14,313 bases of DNA from an uncultured Candidatus Saccharibacteria bacterium. GTDB lineage: Bacteria > Patescibacteriota > Minisyncoccia > Phycocordibacterales > UBA6065. The notes beneath the pieces were generated by a model. The model did no database searches and had not been told where the DNA came from. It was given only the letters and a program-made list of their open reading frames with translations. Numbering within the stretch: the stretch's first letter is position 1; every line of letters starts with the position of its first letter. Shown piece after piece: positions 1-14,313 of the stretch. The DNA is taken from NCBI GenBank assembly GCA_964627275.1, contig CAZVHT010000022.1, positions 1 to 14,313 of the forward strand, written 5' to 3'. A program made the translations under genes and the position numbers.

Positions 1-179
<179 letters not shown>

Positions 180-209
180 GCCGTATAATAGAGCATACCC
201 ATTAAAAGC

Positions 210-232
210 TTGACTTTTGTGTATGTTATAGT
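210..232 (+). promoter_or_regulatory. Putative promoter of the 333..794 cassette (extended -10)
   Basis: TTGACT at 210-215. TGtTATAGT at 224-232 fits an extended -10 (TGnTATAAT-like). The spacer to the -35-like hexamer is only 11 nt, so the extended -10 is the likely functional element. Confidence 0.4.
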
Positions 233-332
233 GTACAACACAGGAGTAATAGTAAGTTCTTTGAGAATAGTAGTTTTGGTTGGCAGAAACAAGGATGTAT
301 TTCGGTAAATCGGCACACGCCGCTTCTGGAAA

Positions 333-794: not shown

Positions 795-844
795 CCTACT
801 CCGGTAAACGATGAATGATCGGTTCAAACATTCATCACTCACCC

Positions 845-879
845 CCCCGCACAGTTTCAACTGAGCGGGGTTTTTGTTT
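845..879 (+). terminator. Rho-independent terminator of the 333..794 cassette
   Basis: CCCCGCaCAGT (845-855) pairs with ACTGaGCGGGG (860-870) around loop TTCA. TTTTTGTTT follows. Confidence 0.8.
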
Positions 880-946
880 GCCTGTTTATCCATAATCTTT
901 ATAAAAAATTTATAATTTCTTTATCTCCATCTGCTAGGATCTTTTT

Positions 947-1333
947 ATGCAAAAAGATTTTGATAGATGGAACGAACTTCAGAAAAAGATACATTCGAAA
1001 GAGTCTTGTGTTTATTGCAATACCAGGGAGATTTGGTGGGCTTCCCTTGGTTTAAATATTGGATCGGAAGAGGACGGTAAGCATGAACTTTTTGAAAGAC
1101 CGGTTCTTATTATTAAAGTTTTTCATAGAAATGCGATACGGATTTTGCCGCTTACGAACAAAATAAAAAACGATCGTTATCATGTCTCAATTTCATACAA
1201 TGAAAGTAGTAGTTCGGTTATTCTTTCCCAACTCAAGACAATAAGTACCAAGAGACTTTCCAGGAAAGTTGGTAGACTCGAGGAGAGACAATTCAACAAT
1301 GTCATAAACGCACTAAAATCGGAATTAGTATAA
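947..1333 (+). CDS. PemK/MazF-family toxin-like protein (solitary)
   Basis: 128 aa. The pattern REIWWASLGLNIGSEEDGK...RPVLIIKVF...LPLT...LSQLKTISTKRL matches, from memory, the PemK/MazF-like fold family. No antitoxin-sized ORF is adjacent. Confidence 0.6.
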   Translation: MQKDFDRWNELQKKIHSKESCVYCNTREIWWASLGLNIGSEEDGKHELFERPVLIIKVFHRNAIRILPLTNKIKNDRYHVSISYNESSSSVILSQLKTISTKRLSRKVGRLEERQFNNVINALKSELV

Positions 1334-1340
1334 AACGAAA

Positions 1341-1356
1341 TCCCCCTCGCGGGGGA
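1341..1356. terminator. GC hairpin downstream of the PemK-like gene (terminator-like, weak)
   Basis: TCCCCC tcgc GGGGGA forms a hairpin. There is no U-tract on the + strand, and the T-rich run lies on the minus-strand side (TTTCGTTTTA). Confidence 0.3.
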
Positions 1357-1472
1357 AATCTCGGAGCCCGAAGGCCTTGTAACTACAAGTATATATCAAT
1401 GTTCAAAGCTGTCAATCTTTTAATCTCGCGAAATAAAGCCTTATTTGCTATAGTACAAACACGATAAAAAAT

Positions 1473-1766
1473 ATGATTTCTCGCGCAGAAATTGAAAAAT
1501 TGGCGAATCTTTCCAGACTGAAACTTTCCGAAGAAGAAATTGTGCGTTTTCAGGGTGAAATGGACGCTATTTTGGCGTATGTGGACAAACTGAAAACGGC
1601 TACTGTCAATAAAAACGGCAGAGAAGCTGAACCTGTTATGTCTGTCAATAAAAACGTCATGAGAGAGGACGTCAATCCGCATGAGTCTGGTGCTTATACA
1701 GATAAGCTAGTAAAGGCGGCGCCGAGACATGATGGTTCTTATATAAAAGTGAAGAAAATCTTGTGA
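1473..1766 (+). CDS. gatC: Asp/Glu-tRNA(Asn/Gln) amidotransferase subunit C
   Basis: 97 aa. The N-terminus MISRAEIEKLANLSRLKLSEEEI...MDAILAYVDKL is typical of GatC. There is a 4-nt GTGA overlap with gatA. Confidence 0.9.
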   Translation: MISRAEIEKLANLSRLKLSEEEIVRFQGEMDAILAYVDKLKTATVNKNGREAEPVMSVNKNVMREDVNPHESGAYTDKLVKAAPRHDGSYIKVKKIL

Positions 1767-3193
1767 AAACCATTGATCTAAAAAATCTCAATATAAAATC
1801 GGCCCACCAGGCTCTGATGCGTGGCGATTATACTGTTCGCGAACTTTGCGAGGCTTATTTGTCGGAAATTAAAAAGAGAGATGGTGATATTCACGCCTAT
1901 CTCGAAATTTATGACGATGTCTTGAAACAGGCCGATCTAGCACAAAAGAAAGTGGCCAGAGAGAATGTTTTGGCGGGTATTCCCATGGCAATCAAAGACA
2001 ATATTTTGATAGAAGACAGGCGCGCCGGTGCAGCTTCAAAAATTCTAGAAGGCTATATTGCTCCATATGATGCGACAGCGATTAGAAAACTAAAAGAGGC
2101 CGGGGTGGTATTCATCGGTCGGACAAATATGGATGAATTTGCTATGGGTAGCTCGACGGAAAATTCAGCTTATGGAGTGACCAAAAATCCGCATGACGCT
2201 AGTCGGGTTGCCGGCGGATCGAGTGGCGGATCGGCGGCGGCTGTCGGTGGTAACTTGGCGCTCGCTGCTCTGGGTTCCGATACGGGTGGTTCTGTTCGCC
2301 AACCGGCGAGCTACTGCGGTGTCGTCGGATTGAAACCCACTTACGGTTCAGTTTCCCGCCACGGTCTCATGGCCATGGGGTCTTCTCTAGATGTCATAGG
2401 CCCTCTCACAAAAACCGTGACGGACGCGGAAATACTTTTTAATTGTATGAAAGGTAAGGATCGCTACGACAGCACTTCGATTGATATAGAAATAAAAAAC
2501 AACAAGTCAAACAGCTCTCCGCGAATTTTAGGCGTGCCGAGACATTTTCTCCGAGGCGAAGGTTTGGATCAGGCTGTCACAAAGTCTTTTGAAGAATCCA
2601 TAGAAAAACTCAAAAAATTAGGATATCAAATTCGCGATATAGAATTACCGAACATAGAATATTCTCTGGCTGTCTATTATGTGCTCATGCCAGCCGAGGT
2701 TTCAGCCAATCTCTCTCGCTTTGACGGCGTAAAGTACGGATTTCACAGAGATGGCAAAGACTTGCTTGACGATTATCTGCTCACACGTGGTGAAGGATTT
2801 GGCAGAGAGGCCCGCAGACGTATCATGCTCGGCACCTATGTACTTTCTGCCGGTTATTATGACGCTTATTACGACAAAGCCTCTGCCGTGCGTGAGCTTT
2901 TGAAATCCGATTTCGCCGAAGCTTTCAAAATCGTAGACGCCATTCTCACCCCGATGGCGCCTACCGTGGCCTTCAAAATCGGCGAAAAAATCGCCAATCC
3001 GATTTCTATGTACTTGGAAGACATATTTACCGTTACGGCGAACCTAGTCGGCGCGCCGGCCATGTCGGTTCCTGCCGGAAACAAGAATATCGGCGACAAA
3101 AAATTGCCCATAGGTCTCCAAATTATCGCTCCGCACGGCCGTGAAGATATCCTCTTTGCTCTCGGAAAAAAATTCTTAAACGAGGTAGAATAG
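1763..3193 (+). CDS. gatA: Glutamyl-tRNA(Gln) amidotransferase subunit A
   Basis: 476 aa with the amidase signature GGSSGGSAAAV and the motifs KDNI and GTDTGGSVRQPA-like. GTG start overlaps the gatC stop. Confidence 0.95.
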   Translation: MKTIDLKNLNIKSAHQALMRGDYTVRELCEAYLSEIKKRDGDIHAYLEIYDDVLKQADLAQKKVARENVLAGIPMAIKDNILIEDRRAGAASKILEGYIAPYDATAIRKLKEAGVVFIGRTNMDEFAMGSSTENSAYGVTKNPHDASRVAGGSSGGSAAAVGGNLALAALGSDTGGSVRQPASYCGVVGLKPTYGSVSRHGLMAMGSSLDVIGPLTKTVTDAEILFNCMKGKDRYDSTSIDIEIKNNKSNSSPRILGVPRHFLRGEGLDQAVTKSFEESIEKLKKLGYQIRDIELPNIEYSLAVYYVLMPAEVSANLSRFDGVKYGFHRDGKDLLDDYLLTRGEGFGREARRRIMLGTYVLSAGYYDAYYDKASAVRELLKSDFAEAFKIVDAILTPMAPTVAFKIGEKIANPISMYLEDIFTVTANLVGAPAMSVPAGNKNIGDKKLPIGLQIIAPHGREDILFALGKKFLNEVE

Positions 3194-3212
3194 CATGTAG
3201 TAATAAAAAGAC

Positions 3213-3800
3213 ATGGATAGCATAAATTTTCTCAACCTCGAGTACATTTACCTGCGGATTTTTGACGCCTTCAAAAATTTCGACATCATAGCCATTCTCA
3301 ACACTTTTATACATTGGGTAAATACCATAAAGCCGTATACGGTCGCTCTCACTATTTTTCTCTTGTATATATTTTTTTATTCGACTATCAGGCTCTGGCA
3401 GGTTGAACTCGCAGAAGAGAAAAAATTTCATTCCAGAATTGCTCTAAAGCAGGCCGAAAACCTTTCCGCTGATCAAGACACGGAACTCAATGACAAATGG
3501 ATCAAGGTCCAAGCTCATATAAACTCCGATAATCCGGCAGAATGGCGACTGGCTGTCTTGGAGGCAGACATCATGCTCGGCGATATTTTGGAGAAGATGG
3601 GCTATCAGGGCGATTCCATAGGGGATAAATTAAAAAGCGTGGATAAAAGCGATTTTTTGACTCTGGATTCGGCGTGGGACGCTCATAAAGTCAGAAACCA
3701 AATTGCTCATGAAGGTACAGATTTCCAGTTGAACGAAAGGGAAGCGAAACGTGTAATAGAGCTGTATAAAAAGGTTTTCGGGGAATTCTATCACCTATAA
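3213..3800 (+). CDS. Membrane-anchored hypothetical protein with a C-terminal helical domain
   Basis: 195 aa with a hydrophobic N-terminal segment (VALTIFLLYIFFYSTI). The C-terminal WDAHKVRNQIAHEG contains an Rx4H spacing like HEPN/DUF4145-type domains. That assignment is inference only. Confidence 0.65.
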   Translation: MDSINFLNLEYIYLRIFDAFKNFDIIAILNTFIHWVNTIKPYTVALTIFLLYIFFYSTIRLWQVELAEEKKFHSRIALKQAENLSADQDTELNDKWIKVQAHINSDNPAEWRLAVLEADIMLGDILEKMGYQGDSIGDKLKSVDKSDFLTLDSAWDAHKVRNQIAHEGTDFQLNEREAKRVIELYKKVFGEFYHL

Positions 3801-3829
3801 ATTTGCTTACACAGGCTGTTTACAATAGC

Positions 3830-3858
3830 TTGCGAGCGCGATTTACATGTTGTATACT
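3830..3858 (+). promoter_or_regulatory. Putative promoter of tRNA-Met
   Basis: TTGCGA (3830-3835), a 17-nt spacer, then TATACT (3853-3858), about 17 nt upstream of the tRNA 5' end. Confidence 0.5.
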
Positions 3859-3874
3859 GTGGCAGTGACATCAT

Positions 3875-3948
3875 AGCGGGGTAGAGCAGCCTGGTAGCTC
3901 GTCAGGCTCATAACCTGAAGGCCGTGGGTTCAAATCCCACCCCCGCAA
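3875..3948 (+). tRNA. tRNA-Met (CAU), initiator-like
   Basis: Manual cloverleaf fold: acceptor AGCGGGG/CCCCGCA with a mismatched 1:72 pair, D arm GAGC/GCTC, anticodon loop CTCATAA, T arm GTGGG-TTCAAAT-CCCAC. The overall sequence closely resembles bacterial tRNA-fMet. CCA is not encoded. Confidence 0.9.
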
Positions 3949-4150
3949 CAAGTACGGACGGGTCAGTCAGAAATGTCTCATTTAGCCTGAATATAGGCGA
4001 CAGAACAGCGGTTCCAAAAGTTCCGGCTGTTTTGTTGTATGTGATACCACTCGGTAGCACCAGTTTTTGAAGCTTCTGTTTTTGTATCGGGTCCATGAAT
4101 CTCCATTGATTGGCGACGGAAAACTGGTATCTGAATAGTTCTGATACAAT
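3949..4150 (-). pseudogene. Possible C-terminal remnant of a site-specific recombinase abutting the tRNA-Met 3' end
   Basis: Minus-strand ORF 3908..4180 reads ...KQKLQKLVLPSGITYNKTAGTFGTAVLSPIFRL... From memory this resembles the K-x-x-L-x-x-L-V-F-P-x-G-I-x-Y...T-x-x-L/N-x-I-F segment near the C-terminus of some serine recombinases. No catalytic N-terminal part is present, and the ORF runs into the tRNA. Confidence 0.3.
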
Positions 4151-4157
4151 TGTATGA

Positions 4158-4670
4158 ATGAAAAAGCTATTCTTCCTCATTGGATCATCAGGCTCTGGAA
4201 AAACTACTGCGGCTAAAACAATCGAAGGAATGAATCTTTCGGATCTTGTTGTTCGCTATTCCGATAGCATTAAGGTTCCCTCAACGGAAGAAATGATTGA
4301 GAAACACGGTAGTCAAGAAGAATGGCAAAGGCAAAATACGATCATGTGGGTCAAGAAAATAAAAGAGAGTCATTTAGATAAGGAAGACGTTCTTTTTGAT
4401 ATCCAATCACGCCCAGCTTTTATAGATGAAGCTTGTACTAAAAATGCTATATCTACTTATGAGGTAATCTTATTTGATTGCTCCGATGATGAGAGAAAGC
4501 ACAGACTCATAAATGAAAGAAAACAGCCTGAACTCGCGAATAACCAAATGATGGACTGGGCACGATATTTGAGGGAACGATGTATTGGAAAGAATCATAC
4601 GATTCTTGATAACACCAACTACACGCCAGAAGAGAGTCTTAAGAAACTCATGGAGATAATGGAAAGATAA
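4158..4670 (+). CDS. P-loop NTPase / small kinase-like protein
   Basis: 170 aa with Walker A GSSGSGKTT at the N-terminus. Size and layout resemble nucleotide or small-molecule kinases. Confidence 0.7.
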   Translation: MKKLFFLIGSSGSGKTTAAKTIEGMNLSDLVVRYSDSIKVPSTEEMIEKHGSQEEWQRQNTIMWVKKIKESHLDKEDVLFDIQSRPAFIDEACTKNAISTYEVILFDCSDDERKHRLINERKQPELANNQMMDWARYLRERCIGKNHTILDNTNYTPEESLKKLMEIMER

Positions 4671-4675
4671 ACTTT

Positions 4676-5413
4676 ATGGCATCGCCAGAAATAAATTTTA
4701 AAGACTTACCGATAGGCCCATACACAGAAGATCTGTTGCAAAAACAATGGACTGGGGTCACTAACATCAAAGGTGTTAAAGAAGGACGTTGTGAGATAGT
4801 TGAGACCCACGGAGAAAAAGCCTTGCAAGTCACTTTTGTTAAAGGAAAGCTCGGTCCAACAGACGGCGGTGCTTCTTGGCGATACAGATTTGAGAAATCT
4901 TTTGAGGAGTTCACAGTCGGATACAAGGTGATGATGGCTAAAGATTTTAAACATGTAAGAGGAGGCAAACTACCCGGTCTCTGCGGTGGATCAAATCCAC
5001 GAGGAGGCACTCAAAATATCAGTGCAGATAATGGATTTTCTGCACGAATAATGTGGCGTGAACTTGGTGCATTAGAACAATATGTCTACTACGCCAATCA
5101 AGATCCGAAAAAGAAGCATGGGACCGATCTCTATTGGAAAGAAAAAGATAAACCCGTTTCTATCATTCCTGGTATTTGGTACACAATCAAGACGTATATA
5201 AAAATGAACACCGTCGGCCAGAAAAATGGAAAGATAATCTCTTGGCTCGACGGCAAAGAAGTCCTCAATGTAGATATTGATTTAAGGAATGACCCTTCAC
5301 TTGGCATTGATTCTTTTCAATTCGTCACATATTTCGGTGGAAACGACGAAACATGGTATCCAGAAAAGAACGAGAAAATATACTTCAAAGATTTCAGCTT
5401 CATTTCTTCGTAA
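4676..5413 (+). CDS. Polysaccharide lyase family 14-like protein
   Basis: 245 aa. Motifs GGKLPGLCGG, GFSARIMWR, W..DG and F.TYFGG..ETW.P match, from memory, the PL14 (alginate-lyase-like) domain. No obvious signal peptide. Confidence 0.6.
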   Translation: MASPEINFKDLPIGPYTEDLLQKQWTGVTNIKGVKEGRCEIVETHGEKALQVTFVKGKLGPTDGGASWRYRFEKSFEEFTVGYKVMMAKDFKHVRGGKLPGLCGGSNPRGGTQNISADNGFSARIMWRELGALEQYVYYANQDPKKKHGTDLYWKEKDKPVSIIPGIWYTIKTYIKMNTVGQKNGKIISWLDGKEVLNVDIDLRNDPSLGIDSFQFVTYFGGNDETWYPEKNEKIYFKDFSFISS

Positions 5414-5416
5414 TTT

Positions 5417-5950
5417 ATGGATATAGAAATCACAGAAGCAACCGTAAATGACGTAACTGGAATATCAGAAGTCCAAAAAGAGACGTGGCTTTCCACTTTT
5501 CCAAATGAGAAATACAACATCACACGCGAAGACATTTTGTCCGAAGATTTTTTCAGTAAAAACAGAATTGAAAAACGTAAGGAAATAATAAGCGATTCAA
5601 AATCCAATACTAAATTCTGGGTAGCGAAAAGCGACGCCAAAGTTATTGGGTATTGTTGTGCTCGGAAACTTGATGATCATAATAAAATCAGGTCAATTTA
5701 TATTCTCCCTGCTTTTCAGGGCAAAGGAATTGGCCAAAAACTCATGAGCAAGATGTTTGAATGGCTTAATCCTACAAAACCCACAAAATTAACTGTGGCG
5801 GTCTACAGCGACAAAGCAATCGCTTTCTATGAGAAGCTCGGATTCGTCAAAGGACAAAGACTCGCTAAAAATCCTGAAGGACCATTTATTACGGGCAAGG
5901 AAGTGCCTGAGATGGAGATGATAAAAGAACCTATAAAGAGGCCAAATTGA
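5417..5950 (+). CDS. GNAT family N-acetyltransferase
   Basis: 177 aa with acetyl-CoA-binding motif A, IYILPAFQGKGIGQKLM, and a FYEKLGF tail. Confidence 0.85.
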   Translation: MDIEITEATVNDVTGISEVQKETWLSTFPNEKYNITREDILSEDFFSKNRIEKRKEIISDSKSNTKFWVAKSDAKVIGYCCARKLDDHNKIRSIYILPAFQGKGIGQKLMSKMFEWLNPTKPTKLTVAVYSDKAIAFYEKLGFVKGQRLAKNPEGPFITGKEVPEMEMIKEPIKRPN

Positions 5951-5976
5951 GCCTTATTTTGAGAGCGCGGATATCC

Positions 5977-6005
5977 TTGACTTTTGTATGTTTTGGGTGT
6001 ATAAT
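5977..6005 (+). promoter_or_regulatory. Near-consensus sigma70-type promoter of the GC-rich operon
   Basis: TTGACT (5977-5982), a 17-nt spacer, then TATAAT (6000-6005). Confidence 0.65.
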
Positions 6006-6112
6006 AGTGTGTAGGATCTAAATACAGATAAAGCAAGGCAACACGCCAAGCAGTATTTGGAGAAGCTTCCCTACTGGGGAGTGTGGTTCAAAGGCCACAT
6101 AGTTCATCACAA

Positions 6113-6367
6113 ATGAAAAACGTTAGCATCGAAAACAGCCCAGTCGCTCAGAAACTCGCTGCAGCTACGCTTACCCGGGCCATCCGCAGCAAGTTCAACC
6201 TCTATCCCCACGAGCAGGCCAAGGGGATCCTCGATATGTGCAGGAAAGATGGCATCGATCCCGTGGAAGCCACGGAGTATCTCACCACCCAACTGCCGTC
6301 GATGATCACGGAGTTCCTTGTGGAAGTCCGTAAGCTCGTGGAAAAGGGTCGGACGGTCAAAGCTTGA
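6113..6367 (+). CDS. Hypothetical small protein, ORF a (84 aa from ATG 6113; ORF track gives GTG 6083)
   Basis: First ORF downstream of the consensus promoter, with GC-rich codon usage. Its stop (6365-6367) lies 5 nt before the next ATG. No family recognised. Confidence 0.55.
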   Translation: MKNVSIENSPVAQKLAAATLTRAIRSKFNLYPHEQAKGILDMCRKDGIDPVEATEYLTTQLPSMITEFLVEVRKLVEKGRTVKA

Positions 6368-6372
6368 GCACC

Positions 6373-6711
6373 ATGAAGACAATCATATCGAATCAGGTGC
6401 CTATGATCGATACCAAGTCAGGTCATTACTATGTCGAACTGGCAGATCATTGCCGAGTCGCGTTCGTAACGGATCTCGCTGGACGACACTGGGTCGAAAT
6501 CACACACATCAACCGGCCGGAGGGTAACCTTCGCCTCACCGTCAAGAGAAACTTCAAGGTGGCCATCTCTGAAGACTTCCTTTTGGAAGAATTCAACGAT
6601 CATGGTGGTAGTTGTTGGGGCATGAACAAGTGTGGTTTCCCCAAGGATATCCTCGGAGACATGGAGGGTTCTCATCTGAAAAGGGTTCATGTGACCCTCG
6701 AGCAGATCTGA
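6373..6711 (+). CDS. Hypothetical protein, ORF b (112 aa from ATG 6373; ORF track gives TTG 6364)
   Basis: Tightly coupled to ORF a with the same codon style. No family recognised. Confidence 0.55.
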   Translation: MKTIISNQVPMIDTKSGHYYVELADHCRVAFVTDLAGRHWVEITHINRPEGNLRLTVKRNFKVAISEDFLLEEFNDHGGSCWGMNKCGFPKDILGDMEGSHLKRVHVTLEQI

Positions 6712-6772
6712 CGTTTGACAACGAGTTGAAGGACTCACTAAAACTTTCAACCTAGGCCCCGATCGGTCTAGG

Positions 6773-6825
6773 TTCTGTCCGAAGATGTGTATCTTCGCTG
6801 ATGAGTCCTAAAGGACGAAACAGAA
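6773..6825 (+). ncRNA. Type III hammerhead self-cleaving ribozyme
   Basis: Stem III is TTCTGT (6773-6778) paired with ACAGAA (6820-6825). The cleavage triplet is GUC, with C17 at 6779. Stem I is CGAAGAT/ATCTTCG (6780-6786/6791-6797) with loop GTGT. The core CTGATGA is at 6798-6804. Stem II is GTCC/GGAC with loop TAAA (6805-6816). GAAA is at 6817-6820. All conserved core positions are canonical. Confidence 0.85.
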
Positions 6826-6920
6826 AGTTCTTTGAATAGTTGAGTTTGGAAGGAAAGAAGCGATTGACTTGCTGGCATAAAGCCATGCGAATCGTAGATT
6901 TCCTCACTAAACTCAACATC

Positions 6921-7340
6921 ATGAAAAAACAATTAATAAAAAAGAAAGTCAGCAAGAAAAAACCGTCTTTCGTGTTCATCGTCGATTCGTACGAGGATGG
7001 CACGCTCCGCCGTGGGCTCGAAGATATGGGGCTCAACCACGAAAACGACTACCACATCACAGGTGCTGGTGGTGCGGACTGGATCATGGCGAATTACGAA
7101 GGACGCCGTATCGCGGACACCCTGAATCTGCTCGTCGTCATGAGCACTTTTCACGGATCGGTCGCACCAGCGGTCGAGCTCTGCAAACAGGTGAAAGCGG
7201 TTAACTCCAAGGCGCGGTTTATCTTCCGGAGCCAGACCTCCAGCCCGTCCGATCCGTTATTCGAAGCCTGTATGGACAAGAGCTTCGAAGACAATAAAAA
7301 ACTCCTCGCGATCATCAAGAAGTTTTTTGGAAAGAAATAG
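6921..7340 (+). CDS. Hypothetical protein, ORF c, with a receiver (CheY-like)/flavodoxin-like pattern that lacks the phospho-acceptor Asp
   Basis: 139 aa from ATG 6921 (in-frame alternatives are ATG 6885 and TTG 6840). It has a Lys-rich N-terminus, then an alternating beta-alpha pattern: FVFIVDS, LNLLVVMS, ARFIFRS, then a Lys in MDKSF. The fold call is inference from this pattern only. Confidence 0.5.
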   Translation: MKKQLIKKKVSKKKPSFVFIVDSYEDGTLRRGLEDMGLNHENDYHITGAGGADWIMANYEGRRIADTLNLLVVMSTFHGSVAPAVELCKQVKAVNSKARFIFRSQTSSPSDPLFEACMDKSFEDNKKLLAIIKKFFGKK

Positions 7341-7395
7341 TGGTATACCCACTCGGTGAAGTAACCGTAGCGCAAGCTAGAAACTTTCAAAAACA

Positions 7396-7424
7396 CCGCA
7401 TGGTTCGCCCAGCGGTTTTGTTTT
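7396..7424 (+). terminator. Rho-independent terminator of the GC-rich operon
   Basis: CCGCatGG TTCG CCcaGCGG forms a hairpin with a UUCG tetraloop. TTTTGTTTT follows. Confidence 0.75.
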
Positions 7425-7463
7425 CGTCGGGATCGTATTCCTGCCAGGTGATATACTTTTCCC

Positions 7464-7985
7464 ATGTCAGATGCACAGAAGGTCGCAAAAACACTAACTC
7501 ACATAATAATCCCGCTTCTCGAAAAATATGATTTTCGATGGGTAATTACGGGTGGGTTTGCCTCTCATGTATATGGAGTGGAGCGTCCTATCACTGATGT
7601 GGATATAGACATCGACACCTCAAAGGACTCACCTGCCTTTAAAGCCTTCACAGGGGAACTCAAGGAATTTATTACCGAACCCCTCAATCATTTTGTTGAT
7701 CAGAATTACGATAACTATAATTTCGAAGTAACATTTGATGGCGTCATATTTGATTTCTGTCCAATGAAGGAGATGAACATTTTTGATAAGGAGACAAATA
7801 AATATATCCCGTTTTATGCAAACGGATTTCCTGATTCAGAAATGGTTGAATGGAATGGTCTTAAATTACCGCTTCTTTCAAAAGAACTCGTTATTAAAAA
7901 TAAAGAGATGTTGGTTTGGCAGAGAGAGTCAGACTTTAAAGATATTGAGCAGCTTAAGAAATTGAATAGTTTAGGTCTTAGATAA
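7464..7985 (+). CDS. Nucleotidyltransferase-fold protein
   Basis: 173 aa. The NTase signature GGFASHVYGVERPITDVDIDID fits G-[GS]-x(9-13)-D-x-D. An extended -10 (TGaTATACT, 7449-7457) ends 6 nt before the ATG, suggesting a leaderless mRNA. Confidence 0.7.
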   Translation: MSDAQKVAKTLTHIIIPLLEKYDFRWVITGGFASHVYGVERPITDVDIDIDTSKDSPAFKAFTGELKEFITEPLNHFVDQNYDNYNFEVTFDGVIFDFCPMKEMNIFDKETNKYIPFYANGFPDSEMVEWNGLKLPLLSKELVIKNKEMLVWQRESDFKDIEQLKKLNSLGLR

Positions 7986-8190
7986 TGACCGACCGACGGT
8001 TTTTCAAAGTCCCCCGCATCACCGCGGTGTGCTTTCTTTTATATAGTGAATTTAGAGGTAGGGTAAAACACAGGGATATAGATACTTGCATCATTCCTCC
8101 TCTCAAACACAGTTCTAACATCCTCCACGACGGCACCACATGTTTATTGCAAGTTGATCTAAAAACCTTTATCCCTAAACGTGAGTTTCA

Positions 8191-8346
8191 TTCTAATAAA
8201 AAGACGGGGTAGGTGGGGTTCCAAGAATATATAGTGCATCAGGCTGTATGTTGAAATTATTACATTGTCTCTCTAGCTAGTTCATACAAACCGCTAATAC
8301 TAGCCATTATCTGGTTCCAATCCTGTCCTACCTGTGCAACAATGAT
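8191..8346 (+). repeat. Copy A of a 156-bp direct repeat (candidate structured RNA or att-type junction)
   Basis: Colinear with 9364-9519 without indels, roughly four fifths identical by eye. Internal hairpin GCTAGT/ACTAGC (8276-8281/8299-8304). The 5' strand GGGGTAGG can pair with CCTACC(T) at 8327-8333. Confidence 0.7.
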
Positions 8347-8498
8347 CTGTACCCCATAAAGTGGACACGGAACGTGTATCTGCTTCCTTTTTGATTTTTT
8401 CACTTTCATTGAATAGGTCAGACATACGAGAATTATAACAAAGAACGTAATCTTGCATAAGGGTACCGTTAATGCTATATTTGCCGTGTATCAACACG

Positions 8499-8546
8499 AA
8501 AAGGGATCCGAAAGGTGTCTGTGCCTTAGGAGCCCTTTTCTTTTTT
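8499..8546 (+). terminator. Rho-independent terminator downstream of repeat copy A
   Basis: Long imperfect hairpin AAAAGGGaTCCgAAaGG ... CCTTaGGAgCCCTTTT, followed by CTTTTTT. Confidence 0.65.
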
Positions 8547-8652
8547 ATGCCACTCTATATAACTTTAAATTTTGCTTCGAGGTATACAGGATGCTTATAA
8601 ACATGATGTGGATAACTTAACCCTTATTTTAAGCCATATTTACAATATTTTA

Positions 8653-8680
8653 TTGCAATCTGGTGATAGTCGTGTATACT
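8653..8680 (+). promoter_or_regulatory. Promoter-like element facing the 3' end of the NYN gene
   Basis: TTGCAA (8653-8658), a 16-nt spacer, then TATACT (8675-8680). Confidence 0.4.
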
Positions 8681-8696
8681 ATTAGTAAGCAACTTC

Positions 8697-8719
8697 GCCG
8701 AGCCTTGTGCTCGGTTTTT
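8697..8719 (+). terminator. Rho-independent terminator (+ orientation), 5 nt beyond the NYN stop codon
   Basis: (G)CCGAGC cttgt GCTCGG(T) forms a hairpin followed by TTTTT. On the minus strand the hairpin is preceded by an A-run and not followed by a U-run. Confidence 0.65.
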
Positions 8720-8724
8720 CCGTT

Positions 8725-9354
8725 CTAGGGTTTTGGTTTTTTAATGACTGTTGGATTTCTCTCAACTGATTCTCTGATAGAATCAAGCGTCACATGCCAC
8801 GATTGCCTGAGTTCCCACGCAAACCCTTTCTCATAAGCTATAAACTTTACTCGCTTTCCTTTTTTCAGAATCTTGTCTTTTGTCCTCAGGAAATCACTAT
8901 CACCACTAAACACATAGACTATATCTAAATCCCCCAAGTCCTCCATAATTTCATCATGCATTTCAATATCGAAATTACATTTATTTCGATAGCCCTTTGG
9001 ATCAGATGGGTCTGTTATTCTCTTTAGGTCTTTAGTCGTAACATCATAACCGATTGATTTATAGTATTTCTCTAGTGTTTCAGCAATACTTCTCTCTGGT
9101 TCAGACCTTGGTTTACCCTTGTATATTCTAGCGTATTTTATTTCACTCAATTCTGAAACCCACGCTAATATTTTTTTGTAGTCACATAGCCACCCAGTAT
9201 CTTTTCCTCGTTTATACAAATTGGAATCATCTATATAAATACCCACCTTTGGTTTCGGGGGTAAAGTCTTTTTAAATTCGTATAACGATAAATATGAGCC
9301 TCTTGCCATGTCTTTTAAAATATCACGTATTTTTGTAGTTTTCAATATCGACAC
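8725..9354 (-). CDS. NYN (LabA/DUF88-like, PIN-related) domain putative ribonuclease
   Basis: 209 aa. VGIYIDDSNLY near the N-terminus and VFSGDSDF...L..GKRV later on are hallmark NYN motifs. The start is uncertain (GTG 9354 or ATG 9309), because a TATACT box abuts the GTG. Confidence 0.8.
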   Translation of the reverse strand: MSILKTTKIRDILKDMARGSYLSLYEFKKTLPPKPKVGIYIDDSNLYKRGKDTGWLCDYKKILAWVSELSEIKYARIYKGKPRSEPERSIAETLEKYYKSIGYDVTTKDLKRITDPSDPKGYRNKCNFDIEMHDEIMEDLGDLDIVYVFSGDSDFLRTKDKILKKGKRVKFIAYEKGFAWELRQSWHVTLDSIRESVERNPTVIKKPKP

Positions 9355-9363
9355 AGTATATTA

Positions 9364-9519
9364 ATTCTATTAAAAAAGGTGGGGTTGGTGGGGTTCCAAA
9401 GATATATAGTGCATCGGCCTGTAGGGTGAAATTACTAGAATGTTTCTCTTGTTAGTTCATAAAAACTACCAATACTAGCCACAATCTGATTCCAACCCCG
9501 TCCTACCTGTGCAACAAGA
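9364..9519 (+). repeat. Copy B of the 156-bp direct repeat
   Basis: Colinear with 8191-8346. GGGGTTGG (9380-9387) pairs perfectly with CCAACCCC (9491-9498). Internal hairpin GTTAGT/ACTAGC (9450-9455/9473-9478). The 3' end GTCCTACCTGTGCAACAAG resembles the tRNA-Met 3' end. Confidence 0.7.
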
Positions 9520-9560
9520 TTCGGCAGATACGGAAAAATTAGAAAATATTATATGGACAA

Positions 9561-9588
9561 AGTAAAAGCGCTCAGTGGAGCGCTTTTA
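9561..9588. terminator. Bidirectional Rho-independent terminator
   Basis: Perfect 12-bp hairpin GTAAAAGCGCTC agtg GAGCGCTTTTAC. The GC core is flanked by T-runs when read on either strand. Confidence 0.7.
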
Positions 9589-9689
9589 CTCATCATTATA
9601 GGAGTACACATAGTTAATACGAAGCTCGGAAGGTTTTCTTTCAAAACCAAGCGTGCCGTGATATGTTGTTACAGAACAGTCAAATATAT

Positions 9690-9763
9690 GTCGGCGTAGC
9701 TCAGGTAGTTAGAGCATAGCACTCATAAAGCTAAGGTCGAAGGTGCAAGTCCTTCCGCCGACA
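9690..9763 (+). tRNA. tRNA with CAU anticodon (elongator Met or lysidine-modified Ile2; cannot be distinguished here)
   Basis: Manual cloverleaf fold: acceptor GTCGGCG/CGCCGAC, D arm GCTC/GAGC, anticodon loop CTCATAA, T arm GAAGG-TGCAAGT-CCTTC. The T-loop has G at position 55, which is unusual. Confidence 0.75.
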
Positions 9764-9809
9764 CAAATACGTGATTTTTTGAGTTTTTTATGCTTAAATG
9801 ATTTTGCAT

Positions 9810-9884
9810 GCGGGTGTAGCTCAGTTTGGTTAGAGCGCTTCCCTGTCACGGAAGAGGTCGCGGGTTCGAACCCCGTCACTCGCG
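9810..9884 (+). tRNA. tRNA-Asp (GUC)
   Basis: Manual cloverleaf fold: acceptor GCGGGTG/CACTCGC, anticodon loop CTGTCAC, T arm GCGGG-TTCGAAC-CCCGT. Confidence 0.9.
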
Positions 9885-9919
9885 CAAGACTAAAAAATCT
9901 TTCTTGTTAAAATAAAGGT

Positions 9920-10375
9920 ATGAAAATAATACTATCAATAATTGTGCTGATAGTAGCATCCGTTTTAATTTTGATGTTTCTTAATCCTATACATTTTGTT
10001 AATCTGAATTTGCTGAAATTAAAGTTTATACAGGTACAGAAGATACAGCTTACAGGAACTAATCTTATTTGGCAGAAAAATTATATTGGAGGTTTAGGAT
10101 CAAACGGCACTGGTGTCTGCAATTATATGATTGGCGAGTTGCGATCATTTGATGGATCGAGAGAAGAGGTGATTGAACAATATAAGAAAGTACTGGACGA
10201 TAATAATAACACTGGAATATTATTTATGAATGATGATAAGTGGCCACTTGATTCTATTCTTTGGGATTGGCGAGGTGAATTTCTTGATCAAAATAATATT
10301 GAAGAAGGAAAATATTATATCGTCTATATTTCTCAAAAATTTCCCGCATTGTTATATAATCGATGTAAGGACTAA
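9920..10375 (+). CDS. Hypothetical protein with an N-terminal membrane anchor
   Basis: 151 aa, very AT-rich, with a hydrophobic N-terminus MKIILSIIVLIVASVLILMF. No recognisable domain. Confidence 0.5.
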   Translation: MKIILSIIVLIVASVLILMFLNPIHFVNLNLLKLKFIQVQKIQLTGTNLIWQKNYIGGLGSNGTGVCNYMIGELRSFDGSREEVIEQYKKVLDDNNNTGILFMNDDKWPLDSILWDWRGEFLDQNNIEEGKYYIVYISQKFPALLYNRCKD

Positions 10376-10492
10376 TTACTCACCAAGTTGAGCATTTCAT
10401 AGGTAAAAATCAAGTTTTATTTTTTTTGCAAAAAGACTGAATATAAACTATAGTAGGCTTTGTATTTTCGAAGTTTTAAATAAATACAGAAT

Positions 10493-10741
10493 GCCGTTGT
10501 AGCTCAGTTGGTAGAGCACGTCATTGGTGGGTCGTAACCCCTGCCCACACAAACGGTAACGTATGTGTGAATCCCGAATAACGGTTAAAGACCCTCTGGG
10601 TCAAGACCGTGGCGTTTATTTTTGCGCCCGAACGACTGACAAGGGTCTCCATAATAAATGGAGAAAGATACAGTCTAGTCCTCCCGCAAGGTGAGGTGTA
10701 AACGAATGACGAGGTCAACAGTTCAATCCTGTTCAACGGCT
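10493..10741 (+). tRNA. tRNA-Thr (GGU) interrupted by a group I intron
   Basis: Exon 1 (10493-10528) and exon 2 (10705-10741) join to a 73-nt cloverleaf: acceptor GCCGTTG/CAACGGC, anticodon stem CGTCA/TGACG, loop TTGGTAA, T arm AACAG-TTCAATC-CTGTT. It closely resembles bacterial tRNA-Thr(GGU). Confidence 0.85.
10529..10704 (+). ncRNA. Group I intron (small, Azoarcus/IC3-like layout), no internal ORF
   Basis: The 5' splice site follows U10528, which forms a wobble pair with G10543 in P1. The P2 hairpin (10546-10569) has a GUAA loop. P4 (10581-85/10606-10), an A-rich J4/5 and P5 (10590-94/10598-602) follow. P6 is 10611-14/10625-28, P7 is GACTG/CAGTC (10634-38/10671-75) and P8 is 10647-52/10658-63. 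J8/7 plus P7' reads AAAGATACAGTC, like the conserved AGATATAGTC. P9 has a GCAA loop (10680-96). The terminal G is 10704. Confidence 0.8.
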
Positions 10742-10798
10742 CAACATACGACCACTACAATATTTGACGATGGTCGTTGAATATAATATGATCGACCT

Positions 10799-11242
10799 GT
10801 GCCTAATCCAAAAAAACTTAGAATAAACTGTCCAATTTGTGGTAAAGAACCTTACCGTTCGGGATATAAATATTGTAGCAATACTTGTCAGCAGGAATAT
10901 CAATACCAATCTTATATTCGAGATTGGAAAGCGGAGAAAATAATTGGTCTACAAAAACTAGGTATAGTTTCTGGATACATCAAGAAGTATTTAAGGAGAA
11001 AATTTGGAAATAAGTGTAGTATATGTGGGTGGGCAAAAATTAATCCAAGTATTGGGTACTCTCCACTAGTCGCTGATCATATCGATGGTAATTGGCGAAA
11101 TAATGTTGAGAGTAATCTCCGGTTGATTTGTCCAAACTGTGATGCATTGACTCCAACTTATGCAGGATTAAATAGGGGAAAAGGTAGGGGGAATCGCATT
11201 CTAAGTAAGAGAGCAAAAGAGGCTAATAAAATATTAATGTAA
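10799..11242 (+). CDS. HNH endonuclease (free-standing, homing-endonuclease-like)
   Basis: 147 aa with an N-terminal CxxC...C..C zinc ribbon. The HNH core is CSICGW...LVADHIDGNWRNNVESNLRLICPNCDA. GTG start. Confidence 0.8.
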   Translation: MPNPKKLRINCPICGKEPYRSGYKYCSNTCQQEYQYQSYIRDWKAEKIIGLQKLGIVSGYIKKYLRRKFGNKCSICGWAKINPSIGYSPLVADHIDGNWRNNVESNLRLICPNCDALTPTYAGLNRGKGRGNRILSKRAKEANKILM

Positions 11243-11255
11243 TTTAATTAACTAT

Positions 11256-11329
11256 GCCAAAGTAGTTCAATGGCAGAACATTACTTTCGTAAAGTAGGAA
11301 TGTGGGTCCGATTCCCACCTTTGGCTCCA
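11256..11329 (+). tRNA. tRNA-Thr (CGU), CCA encoded
   Basis: Manual cloverleaf fold: acceptor GCCAAAG/CTTTGGC, D arm GTTC/GAAC, anticodon loop TTCGTAA, T arm GTGGG-TCCGATT-CCCAC (C at position 55, unusual), discriminator T, then CCA at 11327-11329. Confidence 0.75.
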
Positions 11330-11526
11330 TGAAATATACCCCATAAAGTGAAGTTATAATAAATATATGTACGATTTTGTAAGCAGTATAGCGAATGTAA
11401 TCGGGGAATACGTAAATAAACTGATTGACTTTTGCTCTGGAAAGAAAAATGAGCCGAAAACCGCTGTGCCAGATAAAATTGTCAATAAATCCAAACCGGC
11501 GACTTGGGTGAGAAAGAAGAAATAAA

Positions 11527-12396
11527 ATGAACAAGAATTCACAACGGATGTTGGAAATTGAAAAATTGATGGCCGATTCGGCTTTTTGGGAAAATAAAGA
11601 CCGCGCCCAGACTATTTTGAAGGAATTGAATGGTCTCAAGAGCGAGTTGGCCGAAGCGAACAAATTGGAAAACGGCAATGCCATCATCACTATTTTTTCC
11701 GGCGCCGGCGGAGATGACGCCGAAGATTTTTCTCGCATGCTTCTCCAAATGTACATGAAATACGCCGACAAACAGGGTTGGACTATACATTTTATGCATC
11801 AAAATCAGAATGATCATGGTGGTTATAGAAACGTGACATTTGAAGTTGTGGGAAAGAGCGTGTATGGAACACTTAAGAACGAGTCAGGCGTTCATCGTTT
11901 GGTGCGTATTTCACCGTTTAACGCCAAAAAGATGCGCCACACTTCCTTTTCTCTGGTAGAAGTCATTCCGAAGTTTGAAAAAATAGAACACATGCCTATT
12001 CCGCCGGAGGAAATCAGAATTGAATTCGCCAGATCGTCCGGTCCTGGCGGGCAAAATGTGAATAAACGCGAAACTGCCGTGCGCCTGGTCCACATACCCA
12101 CCAAAATCGCTGTTCATTCCGATTCCGAGCGCTCGCAAGCTCAAAATAGGGAACAGGCCATGAAAATCCTCTCGGCCAAACTCTATAAACTGCGCGAGGA
12201 CGAAAAAATCGCCCGCGAGAAAGGCATGTACATATCAAAAACCACGGACATAGAATGGGGCAATCAGATACGCTCATACGTTCTGCATCCGTATAAAATG
12301 GTCAAGGACCACAGGACGGACGCGGAAACTTCAAATGTGGATGCTGTATTGGGAGGGGAGATTGATTTGTTTATAGAGGCGGAAAAAGGGCTGTAA
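11527..12396 (+). CDS. prfB: Peptide chain release factor 2 (short form, 289 aa)
   Basis: SPF tripeptide (RISPFN), GGQ motif (GPGGQNVN) and a strongly RF2-like core. The N-terminal domain 1 is much shorter than in E. coli or B. subtilis RF2. Confidence 0.9.
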   Translation: MNKNSQRMLEIEKLMADSAFWENKDRAQTILKELNGLKSELAEANKLENGNAIITIFSGAGGDDAEDFSRMLLQMYMKYADKQGWTIHFMHQNQNDHGGYRNVTFEVVGKSVYGTLKNESGVHRLVRISPFNAKKMRHTSFSLVEVIPKFEKIEHMPIPPEEIRIEFARSSGPGGQNVNKRETAVRLVHIPTKIAVHSDSERSQAQNREQAMKILSAKLYKLREDEKIAREKGMYISKTTDIEWGNQIRSYVLHPYKMVKDHRTDAETSNVDAVLGGEIDLFIEAEKGL

Positions 12397-12449
12397 ATTT
12401 GTCAAATTATCAAAGCAAAAACATCGTTAAAACATGTTAGAATGTACAA

Positions 12450-13130
12450 ATGATTCGTTTTGATAAAGTTTCAAAGATATATGCGGATAATTTTGCGGCG
12501 CTGTCAGACATAAATATCAACATAGAGCCAAAGGAGTTCGTCTCCATCGTCGGTCACTCCGGAGCGGGCAAGACGACTCTTATAAAGATGATTATGGCTG
12601 AAGAAAAGCCGACTAAGGGCAAGGTTTATTTTGATTCAATAGATGTCCATAAATTGCGGAACGGCAAAAAGCCACAATATCGCCGCCGAATAGGAACGGT
12701 GTTTCAGGATTATCGTTTGATACCGGGGAAAACGGTGTTTGAGAATATCGCTTTTGCTATGGAAGTGGCAGGCAGAACAGATGAAGAGATTGCTTCGGAT
12801 GTTCCCCATGTTCTCGGCCTAGTCGATCTCGGCAGAAAAATCTGGAGTTTCCCTCATGAACTATCCGGCGGAGAAAAACAACGTGTAGCCATAGCCCGGG
12901 CCATAGTCAATCAGCCAGATCTGATCATTGCCGATGAACCAACCGGAAATCTGGATCCTATAAATACCCACGAAATCGTCCAGGTTCTCAAAAAAATAAA
13001 CAATTTGGGTACGACCGTAATTCTCACCACTCACAACAAAGGTGTCATTGAATCGGTGGGCGGACGCGTCATTACCCTAGAAAACGGCAAAATAATTCGT
13101 GATGATAAAGAGGGTAAATATGCAATTTAA
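12450..13130 (+). CDS. ftsE: Cell division ATP-binding protein FtsE
   Basis: 226 aa with Walker A GHSGAGKTT, ABC signature LSGGEKQR and Walker B LIIADEPT. It lies directly upstream of ftsX. Confidence 0.9.
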   Translation: MIRFDKVSKIYADNFAALSDININIEPKEFVSIVGHSGAGKTTLIKMIMAEEKPTKGKVYFDSIDVHKLRNGKKPQYRRRIGTVFQDYRLIPGKTVFENIAFAMEVAGRTDEEIASDVPHVLGLVDLGRKIWSFPHELSGGEKQRVAIARAIVNQPDLIIADEPTGNLDPINTHEIVQVLKKINNLGTTVILTTHNKGVIESVGGRVITLENGKIIRDDKEGKYAI

Positions 13131-13150
13131 AATCTGATATACTTTAGAAT

Positions 13151-14068
13151 ATGCTATGGATTGCTATAAAACGCGTTTTTAAATCAGGTTTCGTCTCATT
13201 TTGGCGAAACGGTTTTGTGTCTCTGTCCTCTATTTTAATTATTACTCTCACTCTGTTTACGCTGGGCGGCATTGTTTTTGCCGGAGCGCTTCTCAATTAT
13301 TCACTTGAAGAAATAAAGTCAAAAGTAGACATCAATGTTTATTTTGTGCCGAGCGCCAACGAAAACGATATTCTCGCCTTGAAGAATAAACTCAAATCCC
13401 TGCCGGAAGTAGCCAGCGTCGAATACATCACGCGGGCAGATACTTTGGCAAACTTTAAACAGCGCCACAACAATGACGAAATCACTCTCCAAGCTCTGGA
13501 CGAACTAGGCGATAACCCTCTGGGTGCTGTTTTGAATATTCGCGCCAGAGAGACTTCCCAATATGAAGGCATAGCCAAATTTCTCGAGGGAGAATCAGGT
13601 GAGGCTGGAACGTTTATAGACAAAATAAACTATTATCAAAACAAAACGGCTATAGATACGTTGTCGAAAATTATAAACGGAGGCACCACTATCGCTTTTT
13701 TTGTCACATTGGTTCTCGCCATCATTTCTATTCTCATAGCTTTCAATACCATACGTTTGGCCATATATATCGCCCGCGAAGAAATTTCCGTCATGAGACT
13801 GGTCGGCGCCGGCAATACTTTTATCCGTGGTCCGTTTATGGTTGTCGGCCTCTTATACGGTTTTGTCTCCGGAATAATCACCCTTCTAATTTTTTATCCC
13901 GTTACGTATTGGATATCCGGCATAACAAAAACTTTTTTCAGCGGTTTTAGCCTCTTTGGCTACTATACTTCGAATCTCTTGGCGCTTTTTGGTCTCATTG
14001 TGGGTGGCGGGCTCGTCCTCGGCGCCCTGTCCAGTTTTCTCGCCGTGCGCAAATATCTGCGAATCTGA
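13151..14068 (+). CDS. ftsX: Cell division permease-like protein FtsX
   Basis: 305 aa: an N-terminal TM helix, a periplasmic-type loop domain, then three C-terminal TM helices. Position after ftsE supports the call. Confidence 0.85.
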   Translation: MLWIAIKRVFKSGFVSFWRNGFVSLSSILIITLTLFTLGGIVFAGALLNYSLEEIKSKVDINVYFVPSANENDILALKNKLKSLPEVASVEYITRADTLANFKQRHNNDEITLQALDELGDNPLGAVLNIRARETSQYEGIAKFLEGESGEAGTFIDKINYYQNKTAIDTLSKIINGGTTIAFFVTLVLAIISILIAFNTIRLAIYIAREEISVMRLVGAGNTFIRGPFMVVGLLYGFVSGIITLLIFYPVTYWISGITKTFFSGFSLFGYYTSNLLALFGLIVGGGLVLGALSSFLAVRKYLRI

Positions 14069-14088
14069 TTTAGGCCTACAAATAGGCT

Positions 14089-14313
14089 ATGAAAAAAATT
14101 CTGATCGTTTTAATTATCGCTACTGCCGGTCTAGCTCTGATATCTTTGTTTAGAACGGATAAACAAATATATCAATCCGTTTACAGAGAGACCCCCAGAG
14201 AAAAAGTTCGAATTCTATTTGTGGGAGATCTGATGTTTGACCGAACTATACGTACGATCGCCGAAGAAAAAGATTATGACTATCTCTTTTCATGTATAAG
14301 TGATTATTTGCAG
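14089..14313 (+). CDS. CapA-like (poly-gamma-glutamate synthesis/metallophosphatase family) protein, 3' part outside the window
   Basis: Open frame from ATG 14089 to the window end: MKKILIVLIIATAGLALISLF...VRILFVGDLMFDRTIRT. The signal-anchor plus the GDxMxxR motif is typical of CapA-type proteins. It is absent from the ORF track because no stop codon lies in the window. Confidence 0.6.
   Translation, partial: MKKILIVLIIATAGLALISLFRTDKQIYQSVYRETPREKVRILFVGDLMFDRTIRTIAEEKDYDYLFSCISDYLQ

Follow-up and report, generated by a model that had tools for sequence, protein, structure and literature searches.

Diverged direct repeats downstream of a tRNA-Met gene in a Patescibacteria genome: probable attachment-site junctions of two related, tandemly integrated mobile elements

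The window analysed here is a stretch of 14,313 nt (contig CAZVHT010000022.1, positions 1 to 14,313 of the forward strand, assembly GCA_964627275.1) from an uncultured Candidatus Saccharibacteria bacterium, which GTDB places in the Patescibacteriota. It represents the bacterial chromosome locus gatCA–tRNA–prfB–ftsEX, on account of which a phage origin of the window was rejected, and its protein and DNA relatives are all Patescibacteria, mainly Paceibacterota, the group in which we place the host. The genes run in the order gatC, gatA, a conserved open reading frame (ORF) of 195 aa and a tRNA-Met gene (3875-3949), followed by accessory genes, two diverged direct repeats (copy A and copy B) with a NYN-domain gene, and then another tRNA-Met, tRNA-Asp, tRNA-Thr, prfB, ftsE and ftsX. 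The first tRNA-Met is called initiator-type below, as we take it to be nearly identical to the tRNA-fMet of E. coli. We propose that copies A and B are very probably the attachment (att) junction repeats of two related mobile elements, which would have integrated in tandem at the 3' end of this tRNA gene. The features on which the comparison of the window with two close relatives (L035 and L037) and with other genomes is based are as follows, in order of position.

3875-3949 (+): initiator-type tRNA-Met gene, ending ...CCCCCGCAAC (ARAGORN; Rfam tRNA, 64.6 bits); proposed integration target, as the attB half of attL
3908-4180 (-): left-junction ORF of 90 aa, of which the first 77 codons (4180-3950) are the remnant 5' side of a split gene
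3945-3950 (+): GCAACA, identity segment (O), presumed crossover and left boundary of the insertion (blastn matches to L035 and L037 end at 3950; junction alignment)
3951-9555 (no strand): composite island of 5.6 kb, absent from close relatives
4158-7985 (+): cargo of the first module, with eight ORFs and a hammerhead ribozyme match (ORF list, Pfam)
8191-8346 (+): copy A, internal att-type junction (P arm plus O) between two modules
8260-8340 (-): displaced 3' end of the split gene in copy A, VAQVGQDWNQIMASISGLYELARETM plus stop
8312-8341 (+): 30-nt core TGGTTCCAATCCTGTCCTACCTGTGCAACA of copy A
8342-8363 (+): right flank of copy A, ATGATCTGTACCCCATAAAGTG, where the NYN module begins
8725-9309, or to 9354 with a GTG start (-): NYN-domain (LabA-like) gene (Pfam NYN, E = 4e-18), cargo of the second module
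9364-9519 (+): copy B, distal att-type junction (P arm plus O), with gene tail at 9435-9515 (-), core at 9487-9516 and GCAACA at 9511-9516
9517-9555 (+): about 38 nt between the GCAACA of copy B and host DNA, beginning AAGATTCGGCAG, like the left end of the island, AAGTACGGACGG
9556-9600 (+): host DNA resumes, including a terminator hairpin at 9561-9588
11330-11350 (+): match to the copy A flank directly after tRNA-Thr(CGT), replacing the sequence seen there in L035 and L037

The relatives L035 and L037 were found with FtsE as the anchor and are the two closest having long contigs (FtsE identity to the window of 88% and 86%, respectively). Both carry the order gatC, gatA, 195-aa ORF, tRNA-Met, tRNA-Met, tRNA-Asp, tRNA-Thr, tRNA-Thr and prfB, given as less than 1 kb. 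In the blastn comparison, window 1446-3950 corresponds to L035 3052-5536 and window 9556-9888 to L035 5539-5953, and the alignment with L037 behaves in the same way. Because both alignments stop at 3950 and resume at 9556, window 3951-9555 is a 5.6-kb insertion. Its left edge falls exactly at the 3' end of the first tRNA-Met, the last 50 nt of which are identical to the L035 tRNA, and the second breakpoint lies 36-39 nt past copy B. The terminator at 9561-9588 stands directly 3' of tRNA-Met in the empty sites of the relatives and is the ancestral host terminator. The repeat unit is absent from both L035 and L037 by blastn. The original prediction, made from the letters of the window, had offered att-type junctions of two tandemly integrated elements as the second of its two readings and had suggested looking in related genomes for an empty site with a single copy. 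An empty site is found in both relatives, which lack the whole of 3951-9555, and the breakpoints at the tRNA 3' end and past copy B support the att-junction reading.

In a repeat search of the window, copies A and B align over 145 nt without a gap at 83% identity (8198-8342 against 9373-9517), and blastn extends the match to 153-154 nt, also at 83% (E = 8e-38 to 3e-38). The direct repeat first noticed by eye is therefore real, with a 145-nt ungapped core and a blastn E of about 1e-38. The statement that the copies align end to end without indels holds for these 145 nt, but the 5' A-run of the repeats contains one 1-nt indel, which shifts the left ends of 8191-8346 and 9364-9519 by one base relative to each other. 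Three further claims of the same source were confirmed: that the repeats enclose only the NYN gene and spacer (8347-9363), that the last 19 nt of copy B resemble the tRNA-Met 3' end plus flank, a real similarity that recurs in other genomes, and that the similarity of A and B ends just past this segment. Immediately to the right of GCAACA, the identity of A and B collapses from 82-90% to 31%. Within the repeats it is uniform: the 62 distal nt agree at 85.5% and the 81 nt with the gene tail at 81.5%. The codons of A and B differ by 4 synonymous and 8 non-synonymous changes, and together with the uniform identity this leads us to regard the two copies as decaying relics. No third copy of the repeat was detected in the window by nhmmer with a profile of A and B.

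At base level, the empty sites of the relatives read …CCCCGCAAC-A and then enter the host terminator. The left junction of the window reads …CCCCGCAAC-AAGTACGGACGG…, the copy A junction …CCTGTGCAAC-AATGATCTG… and the copy B junction …CCTGTGCAAC-AAGATTCGGCAG…, the last being followed by 38 nt and then by the same host terminator (9561-9588). On these reads of the tRNA, A and B, GCAACA is common to the target and both repeats: it occupies 3945-3950 at the end of the tRNA, 8336-8341 in copy A and 9511-9516 in copy B. To its right stand AAGTACGGACGG… after the tRNA, ATGATCTG… after copy A and AGATTCGGCAG… after copy B. In other genomes carrying the unit, which are described below, the right flanks of units resemble the left-junction flank of the window (L028, GCAACAAGTTCGGACGG; L027_b, GCAACAAGTACGGA), and in L007/L013 the tRNA flank AGAGTTGATTTG matches the flank of unit 2, AGAGTTGGTTGG. 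These matches are the relation expected among B-O-P', P-O-P' and P-O-B' junctions and support the att reading.

Two short stretches of the window might record further integration events. A third element may have left the 38 nt that follow copy B as a stub. The sequence after copy A (8343-8363) matches that after tRNA-Thr(CGT) (11330-11350) at 18 of 21 positions; within the window this 21-nt sequence occurs at these two sites only, and it is absent after tRNA-Thr(CGT) in L035 and L037. The segment 11330-11350 may thus be a second integration scar, at tRNA-Thr(CGT).

The 30-nt core was located elsewhere by pattern scans of metagenomes and GTDB genomes, in which several handles refer to the same source sequences (L014 = L003 = L006; L007 = L013 = L015). 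The conserved 3' 75-80 nt of the repeat, and only this part of it, recurs in at least six other source sequences from the Candidate Phyla Radiation (CPR), with one to three copies per locus. Copy A and two Saccharibacteria contigs (L014, L020) have the core TGGTTCCAATCCTGTCCTACCTGTGCAACA in identical form, copy B and the Paceibacterota sequences L007 and L018 in near-identical form. The flanks are unrelated. A genome-wide scan gave one or two exact-pattern matches per genome, and L007 holds a third, diverged unit copy within the same locus. The genes at these loci vary. Three units surround two genes of the leucine-rich repeat (LRR) type in L007, two units 810 nt apart surround an LPD3-like gene in L027, and the loci of L014, L018, L020 and L028 carry unrelated genes. 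The window, L018 and L013 have the unit 3' of the same tRNA-Met gene, with which it shares its strand.

The NYN gene has homologues elsewhere, one of them 84% identical, at unrelated loci that lack the repeat, and a fixed NYN-plus-repeat cassette was rejected on that ground; an exact-sequence look-up of the NYN protein gave no match. A role of the core as promoter, 5' untranslated region or terminator was also rejected, as its orientation to neighbouring genes varies (L003/L014 against the window and L007) and it has no hairpin or T-run.

Some details of these loci are given here as observations in their own right. The cargo genes of L007 (1650-2200 and 2790-3700) consist of runs of a leucine-rich-type repeat of about 60 nt (20 aa) and are paralogues of each other. 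In the Saccharibacteria contig L020, the unit (5101-5181) comes directly after the homologues of gatA and the 195-aa ORF and is adjoined by HEPN and DUF2726 genes; in the Saccharibacteria contig L014, the unit (4482-4564) lies 2 kb from the homologues of the same two genes. No tRNA genes were detected at the L020 and L014 loci.

The original prediction had no means of seeing that the part of the repeat which is conserved is the displaced 3' end of an element gene spanning the att site. Frame 1 of the minus strand, VAQVG(Q/R)xWNQI…(Y/H)EL…stop, is open in every unit, and its synonymous differences are about twice as many as those in any other frame. In most units it closes 25-28 codons after VAQVG. 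Upstream, the N-terminal parts of the unit ORFs are unrelated to each other. Since six of the ten units have no ATG, GTG or TTG before the upstream in-frame stop, and conservation starts abruptly at TTGTTGCAC, we conclude that the unit is not a free-standing gene. In copy A, NCBI annotates a 49-aa ORF (8260-8409) over the gene tail, here P0098.

The other side of the gene is found at the left junction of the island. The left-junction ORF reads …GTAVLSPIFRLNETFLTDPSVL-VAGVGFEPTAFRL and stop, passing across GCAACA into the antisense of the tRNA (…DPSVL, then VAGVGFEPTAFRL and stop), and it shares its frame with copies A and B (direct count 4180-3949 = 231 = 77x3). An exhaustive HMMER search gave P0224, a contig-edge fragment that represents an uninterrupted version, …KQRLQKVVLPQGMTYRKTNGVIGTAILSPIFRLNEEFRREPSGLVAGVRRDWNQIIQDIRDIYELASEL. 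In tblastn, residues 10-74 of P0224 fall on window 4141-3938 at 60% identity (E = 3.6e-21), and residues 70-94 fall on copies A and B at 56% (in copy A, 8343-8269). The unit peptide is the C-terminus of a longer ORF in both P0224 and P0228, and in L039, the DNA encoding P0224, 13 nt of the site reproduce the tRNA 3' end exactly, in antisense. The left remnant, the shared frame and the uninterrupted P0224 together indicate that A and B are the displaced tails of a gene and contain att cores. L039 also contains an exact 24-nt direct repeat, GAGCCGTCTGGACTTGTTGCGGGG, at 204-227 and 313-336; it covers the uninterrupted split-gene junction, recurs 110 nt downstream and is then followed by a diverged, frameshifted unit-like sequence.

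The family of the split gene was sought in several ways. For the C-terminal 95 aa, no match was found in Pfam, NCBIfam, PHROG or PDB, and the AlphaFold model of the split-gene fragment has a pLDDT of 48, too low for use. P0224, over these 95 aa, contains no His. The full-length gene was not found in four scans of viral collections, by tblastn against a phage collection or by cluster look-up. Several candidates were set aside. A tail of a large chromosomal host gene was rejected, as word-indexed and exhaustive HMMER searches gave no large protein with such a C-terminus. The long HMMER matches P0223, P0226, P0227 and P0231 are repeat proteins and were considered spurious. P0101 has a PHP_C match (E = 0.05), which was discarded because the neighbouring PHP protein matches another part of the profile and has an unrelated C-terminus, and L030 and L031 (P0101 and P0102) were excluded as possible chance matches (E = 0.09 and 8, in a peptide-biased search).

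From these observations we propose a probable course of integration. The att site falls within the 3' end of a gene of the element, and this gene, when the element is free or in tandem, would read …LSPIFRLNE…PSxL-VA(Q/G)VGxDWNQI…EL…stop, and the crossover would take place at GCAACA. Integration would leave the gene body on the tRNA side (3950-4180), fused in frame to the tRNA antisense, and would send the last 26 codons with the downstream DNA to the far side, where they would form the repeat. Copy A would then join module 1 (cargo 4158-7985) to module 2 (NYN), with copy B as the distal junction. The first element would have entered at tRNA-Met, and a related NYN element would have followed at the distal junction, unless the pair arrived together; both would later have lost their recombination genes. 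The insertion with its breakpoints, the shared GCAACA, the split gene with its uninterrupted homologue, the recurrence of the unit around unrelated cargo and the lack of RNA-structure signals are observed directly, while we infer that a recombinase was at work, in which order the events took place and what part the split gene plays.

As to that role, the split gene could be the recombinase of the element itself, giving a "suicidal" (SSV-type) design in CPR bacteria, in which the integrase is truncated or given a new tail on insertion into a tRNA gene; we consider this idea rather improbable. In that case the last 26 residues would be exchanged for 13 encoded by the tRNA antisense. A weaker version may be that exchange of the tail switches a different function of the element, according to its integration state.

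Pfam scans of the island ORFs gave only AAA kinase-like, PL14 lyase, GNAT and NYN domains, and no transfer genes were found in the island by these scans. A type III hammerhead ribozyme match (Hammerhead_3) is located inside the island at 6772-6826 (+), between two small unannotated ORFs, with 48.8 bits against the Rfam gathering threshold of 48.5 bits (E = 2.5e-8). Just downstream of copy A and of its promoter-like match (8254-8226) on the minus strand is a 38-codon ORF (7978-8094, -) with a strong AGGAGG Shine-Dalgarno sequence.

A number of points weigh against tandem integration at the tRNA. No recombinase was found in the island by Pfam (ten ORFs of at least 75 aa plus a 65-aa ORF at 8300-8497), and neither an integrase nor any other recombinase was found next to any of the units. 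The strict identity of tRNA and unit is limited to the 6 nt of GCAACA, with loose similarity upstream, which is shorter than most att cores of tRNA genes, and dyad symmetry in the core does not exceed chance. For the 38 nt that separate copy B from host DNA, the explanation as an element stub is tentative. Within the available DNA of L014, L020, L027 and L028 there is no tRNA-Met, and L028/L029 carry only a tRNA-Asn, about 650 nt from the unit. The uninterrupted copies of the split gene are contig-edge fragments only, in which the C-terminal 95 aa are represented. Finally, the assembled sequences show no excised or circular form. As no recombinase is recognisable, the modules would be remnants in decay that a related element could at most move in trans or in cis.

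Among the other explanations, the one that survives best is a local segmental duplication, in which a 156-bp promoter or leader would have been copied by slippage or unequal crossing-over, trapping the NYN gene without any site-specific recombination. The distal 62-70 nt of each copy would suit such a leader, as they carry a promoter-like match on the minus strand (TCAACA-17-TATATT at 8254-8226) and copy B lies directly upstream of NYN, and the L007 units, standing between tandem paralogous LRR genes, might come from plain tandem duplication. However, several CPR lineages of phylum rank have the unit next to genes that are unrelated to one another, and in each case the flanking sequence changes precisely at GCAACA. 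The segment as a whole, moreover, is inserted exactly at the 3' end of a tRNA gene. A duplication also does not predict a unit that is a gene tail with its other half at the opposite end of the insertion. We consider this explanation improbable.

It is still less probable that the repeats are functional small-protein genes or leader ORFs, such as the 49-aa ORF at 8260-8409, which would regulate or accompany the cargo. Although the substitutions are coding-like, the stop falls at a similar position (25-28 codons past VAQVG) in most units, and some units have an upstream ATG (W_A, L018, L027_a, L028) and are annotated as genes (P0098-P0100), the lack of a start codon in 6/10 units and the mutually unrelated N-terminal parts speak against it. 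The 4 synonymous and 8 non-synonymous changes between A and B give no sign of purifying selection, and in P0224 and P0228 a longer ORF ends in this peptide, which has no protein family match.

The first reading of the original prediction was that A and B are paralogous structured RNAs. In this form, small RNAs would be made from the plus strand and each ended by a downstream terminator. This reading is not supported, and we now hold it to be the least probable of the three. The proposed internal hairpin and closing helix exist as sequences and are used by the minimum free energy folds of A and B, which close with the G-rich 5' strand and in which the T-to-C changes strengthen the helix of B. 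The fold energies, however, equal those of dinucleotide shuffles (z of -0.05 and -0.38 on the plus strand, +1.1 and -1.3 on the minus strand). Rfam gave no family match even at E <= 10 with permissive filters, and RNAalifold on seven homologous units gave 0 pairs on the plus strand and 5 on the minus strand, none of them compensatory, so that there is no consensus structure. The G-rich 5' strand is confined to the window, and outside it the GCTAGT/ACTAGC hairpin is not conserved either. Because that strand is absent from the homologues, the argument from wobble pairs turning into G-C pairs rests on two drifting paralogues. Conservation follows the minus-strand reading frame instead. Both hairpin terminators said to follow the copies on the plus strand do exist, but the one at 9561-9588 is that of the host tRNA and not of the repeat.

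Other candidates were rejected directly: a tRNA-like or pseudo-tRNA element for the whole 156 nt (no match to the Rfam tRNA model, only a superficial likeness to T-arm and D-arm), an integron attC site (no dyad symmetry above chance, GTGCAAC without an inverse partner within 130 nt, no integrase), a dif/Xer site (no dyad symmetry, no switch of GC skew but only a local dip over the minus-strand NYN gene) and the template and variable repeats of a diversity-generating retroelement (DGR; mismatches of all types between A and B, no reverse transcriptase in the window).

The att junctions proposed here are a CPR-specific case of the well-known system of islands that target tRNA genes. Tandem accretion with cis-mobilizable, integrase-less remnants (CIMEs) has been described for ICESt1 and ICESt3 of Streptococcus (PMC5704250). 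As with CIMEs, the insertion is at a tRNA 3' end, direct att-type repeats stand at the ends and between modules, att sites are kept while integration genes are lost, and the cargo is accessory or defence-like. The window has the corresponding arrangement, with copy A internal, copy B distal, the tRNA end proximal and no recombinase or transfer genes. It differs in that the host belongs to the CPR/Patescibacteria, the element family is undescribed, its mobility is putative, and the repeat is mostly the tail of an element gene with only GCAACA common to the tRNA.

Tycheposons of Prochlorococcus are likewise found next to tRNA genes in streamlined genomes, where successive integrations push older elements inward (bioRxiv 10.1101/2020.12.28.424599). 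They have in common with the window the tRNA-adjacent islands, the degenerate remnants and the repeated att motifs. While their att motifs are partial tRNAs and their intact elements have recognisable tyrosine recombinases, the window has no recognisable recombinase, and what is repeated in it is the tail of a gene, matching the tRNA over 6 nt. For type I, or "suicidal", integrases of the SSV type, found in archaeal viruses and plasmids, attP lies within the integrase gene, an arrangement described as being restricted to archaea so far (PMC7253208). The likeness is an att site in a translated ORF of the element, where integration at a tRNA splits the gene to opposite ends, with decay afterwards. 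In SSV-type elements, however, the split gene is a tyrosine integrase, whereas the split gene of the window is at most a candidate recombinase, loses only its last 26 codons and belongs to a bacterial host.

Several other features of the locus deserve mention. Downstream of the island, tRNA-Thr(GGT) is split after the anticodon by a 176-nt insert (10529-10704) into halves at 10488-10528 and 10705-10742 (+), which are 97.6% and 100% identical to the L035 gene and both 100% identical to that of L037. This tRNA gene was missed by ARAGORN, and the insert matches a Group I intron no more than weakly (11.4 bits, E = 2). Further insertions lie between the tRNA genes of the window at 9889-10487 and 10743-11255, where the spacing in the relatives is 2 to 25 nt; they contain a 151-aa ORF (9920-10375) and an HNH/zinc-ribbon-like ORF (10799-11242), and L018 has a similar HNH-like ORF before tRNA-Thr. 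Between prfB and ftsE, a DGR with bAvd, reverse transcriptase and a candidate target ORF is present in L035 (7418-10004) and L037 (5678-8174) and absent from the window, in which 12396 to 12404 is contiguous. Upstream of gatC, a MazF/PemK-type toxin gene (947-1333, +; Pfam E = 1.2e-14) is preceded by a 153-aa ORF (333-794) with no family match.

The mobile elements of CPR/Patescibacteria and the ways in which these organisms exchange genes are poorly charted. Here, the initiator-type tRNA-Met next to gatCA provides an integration hotspot defined by sequence, and the 30-nt marker TGGTTCCAATCCTGTCCTACCTGTGCAACA is usable to find such islands and their cargo (NYN, HEPN, LRR, DUF2726) in Paceibacterota and Saccharibacteria. 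The repeats also hold a warning for the discovery of RNA genes, as diverged direct repeats with apparent compensatory changes can be att scars. If the split gene were indeed a recombinase, bacteria too would have a design that has been regarded as exclusively archaeal.

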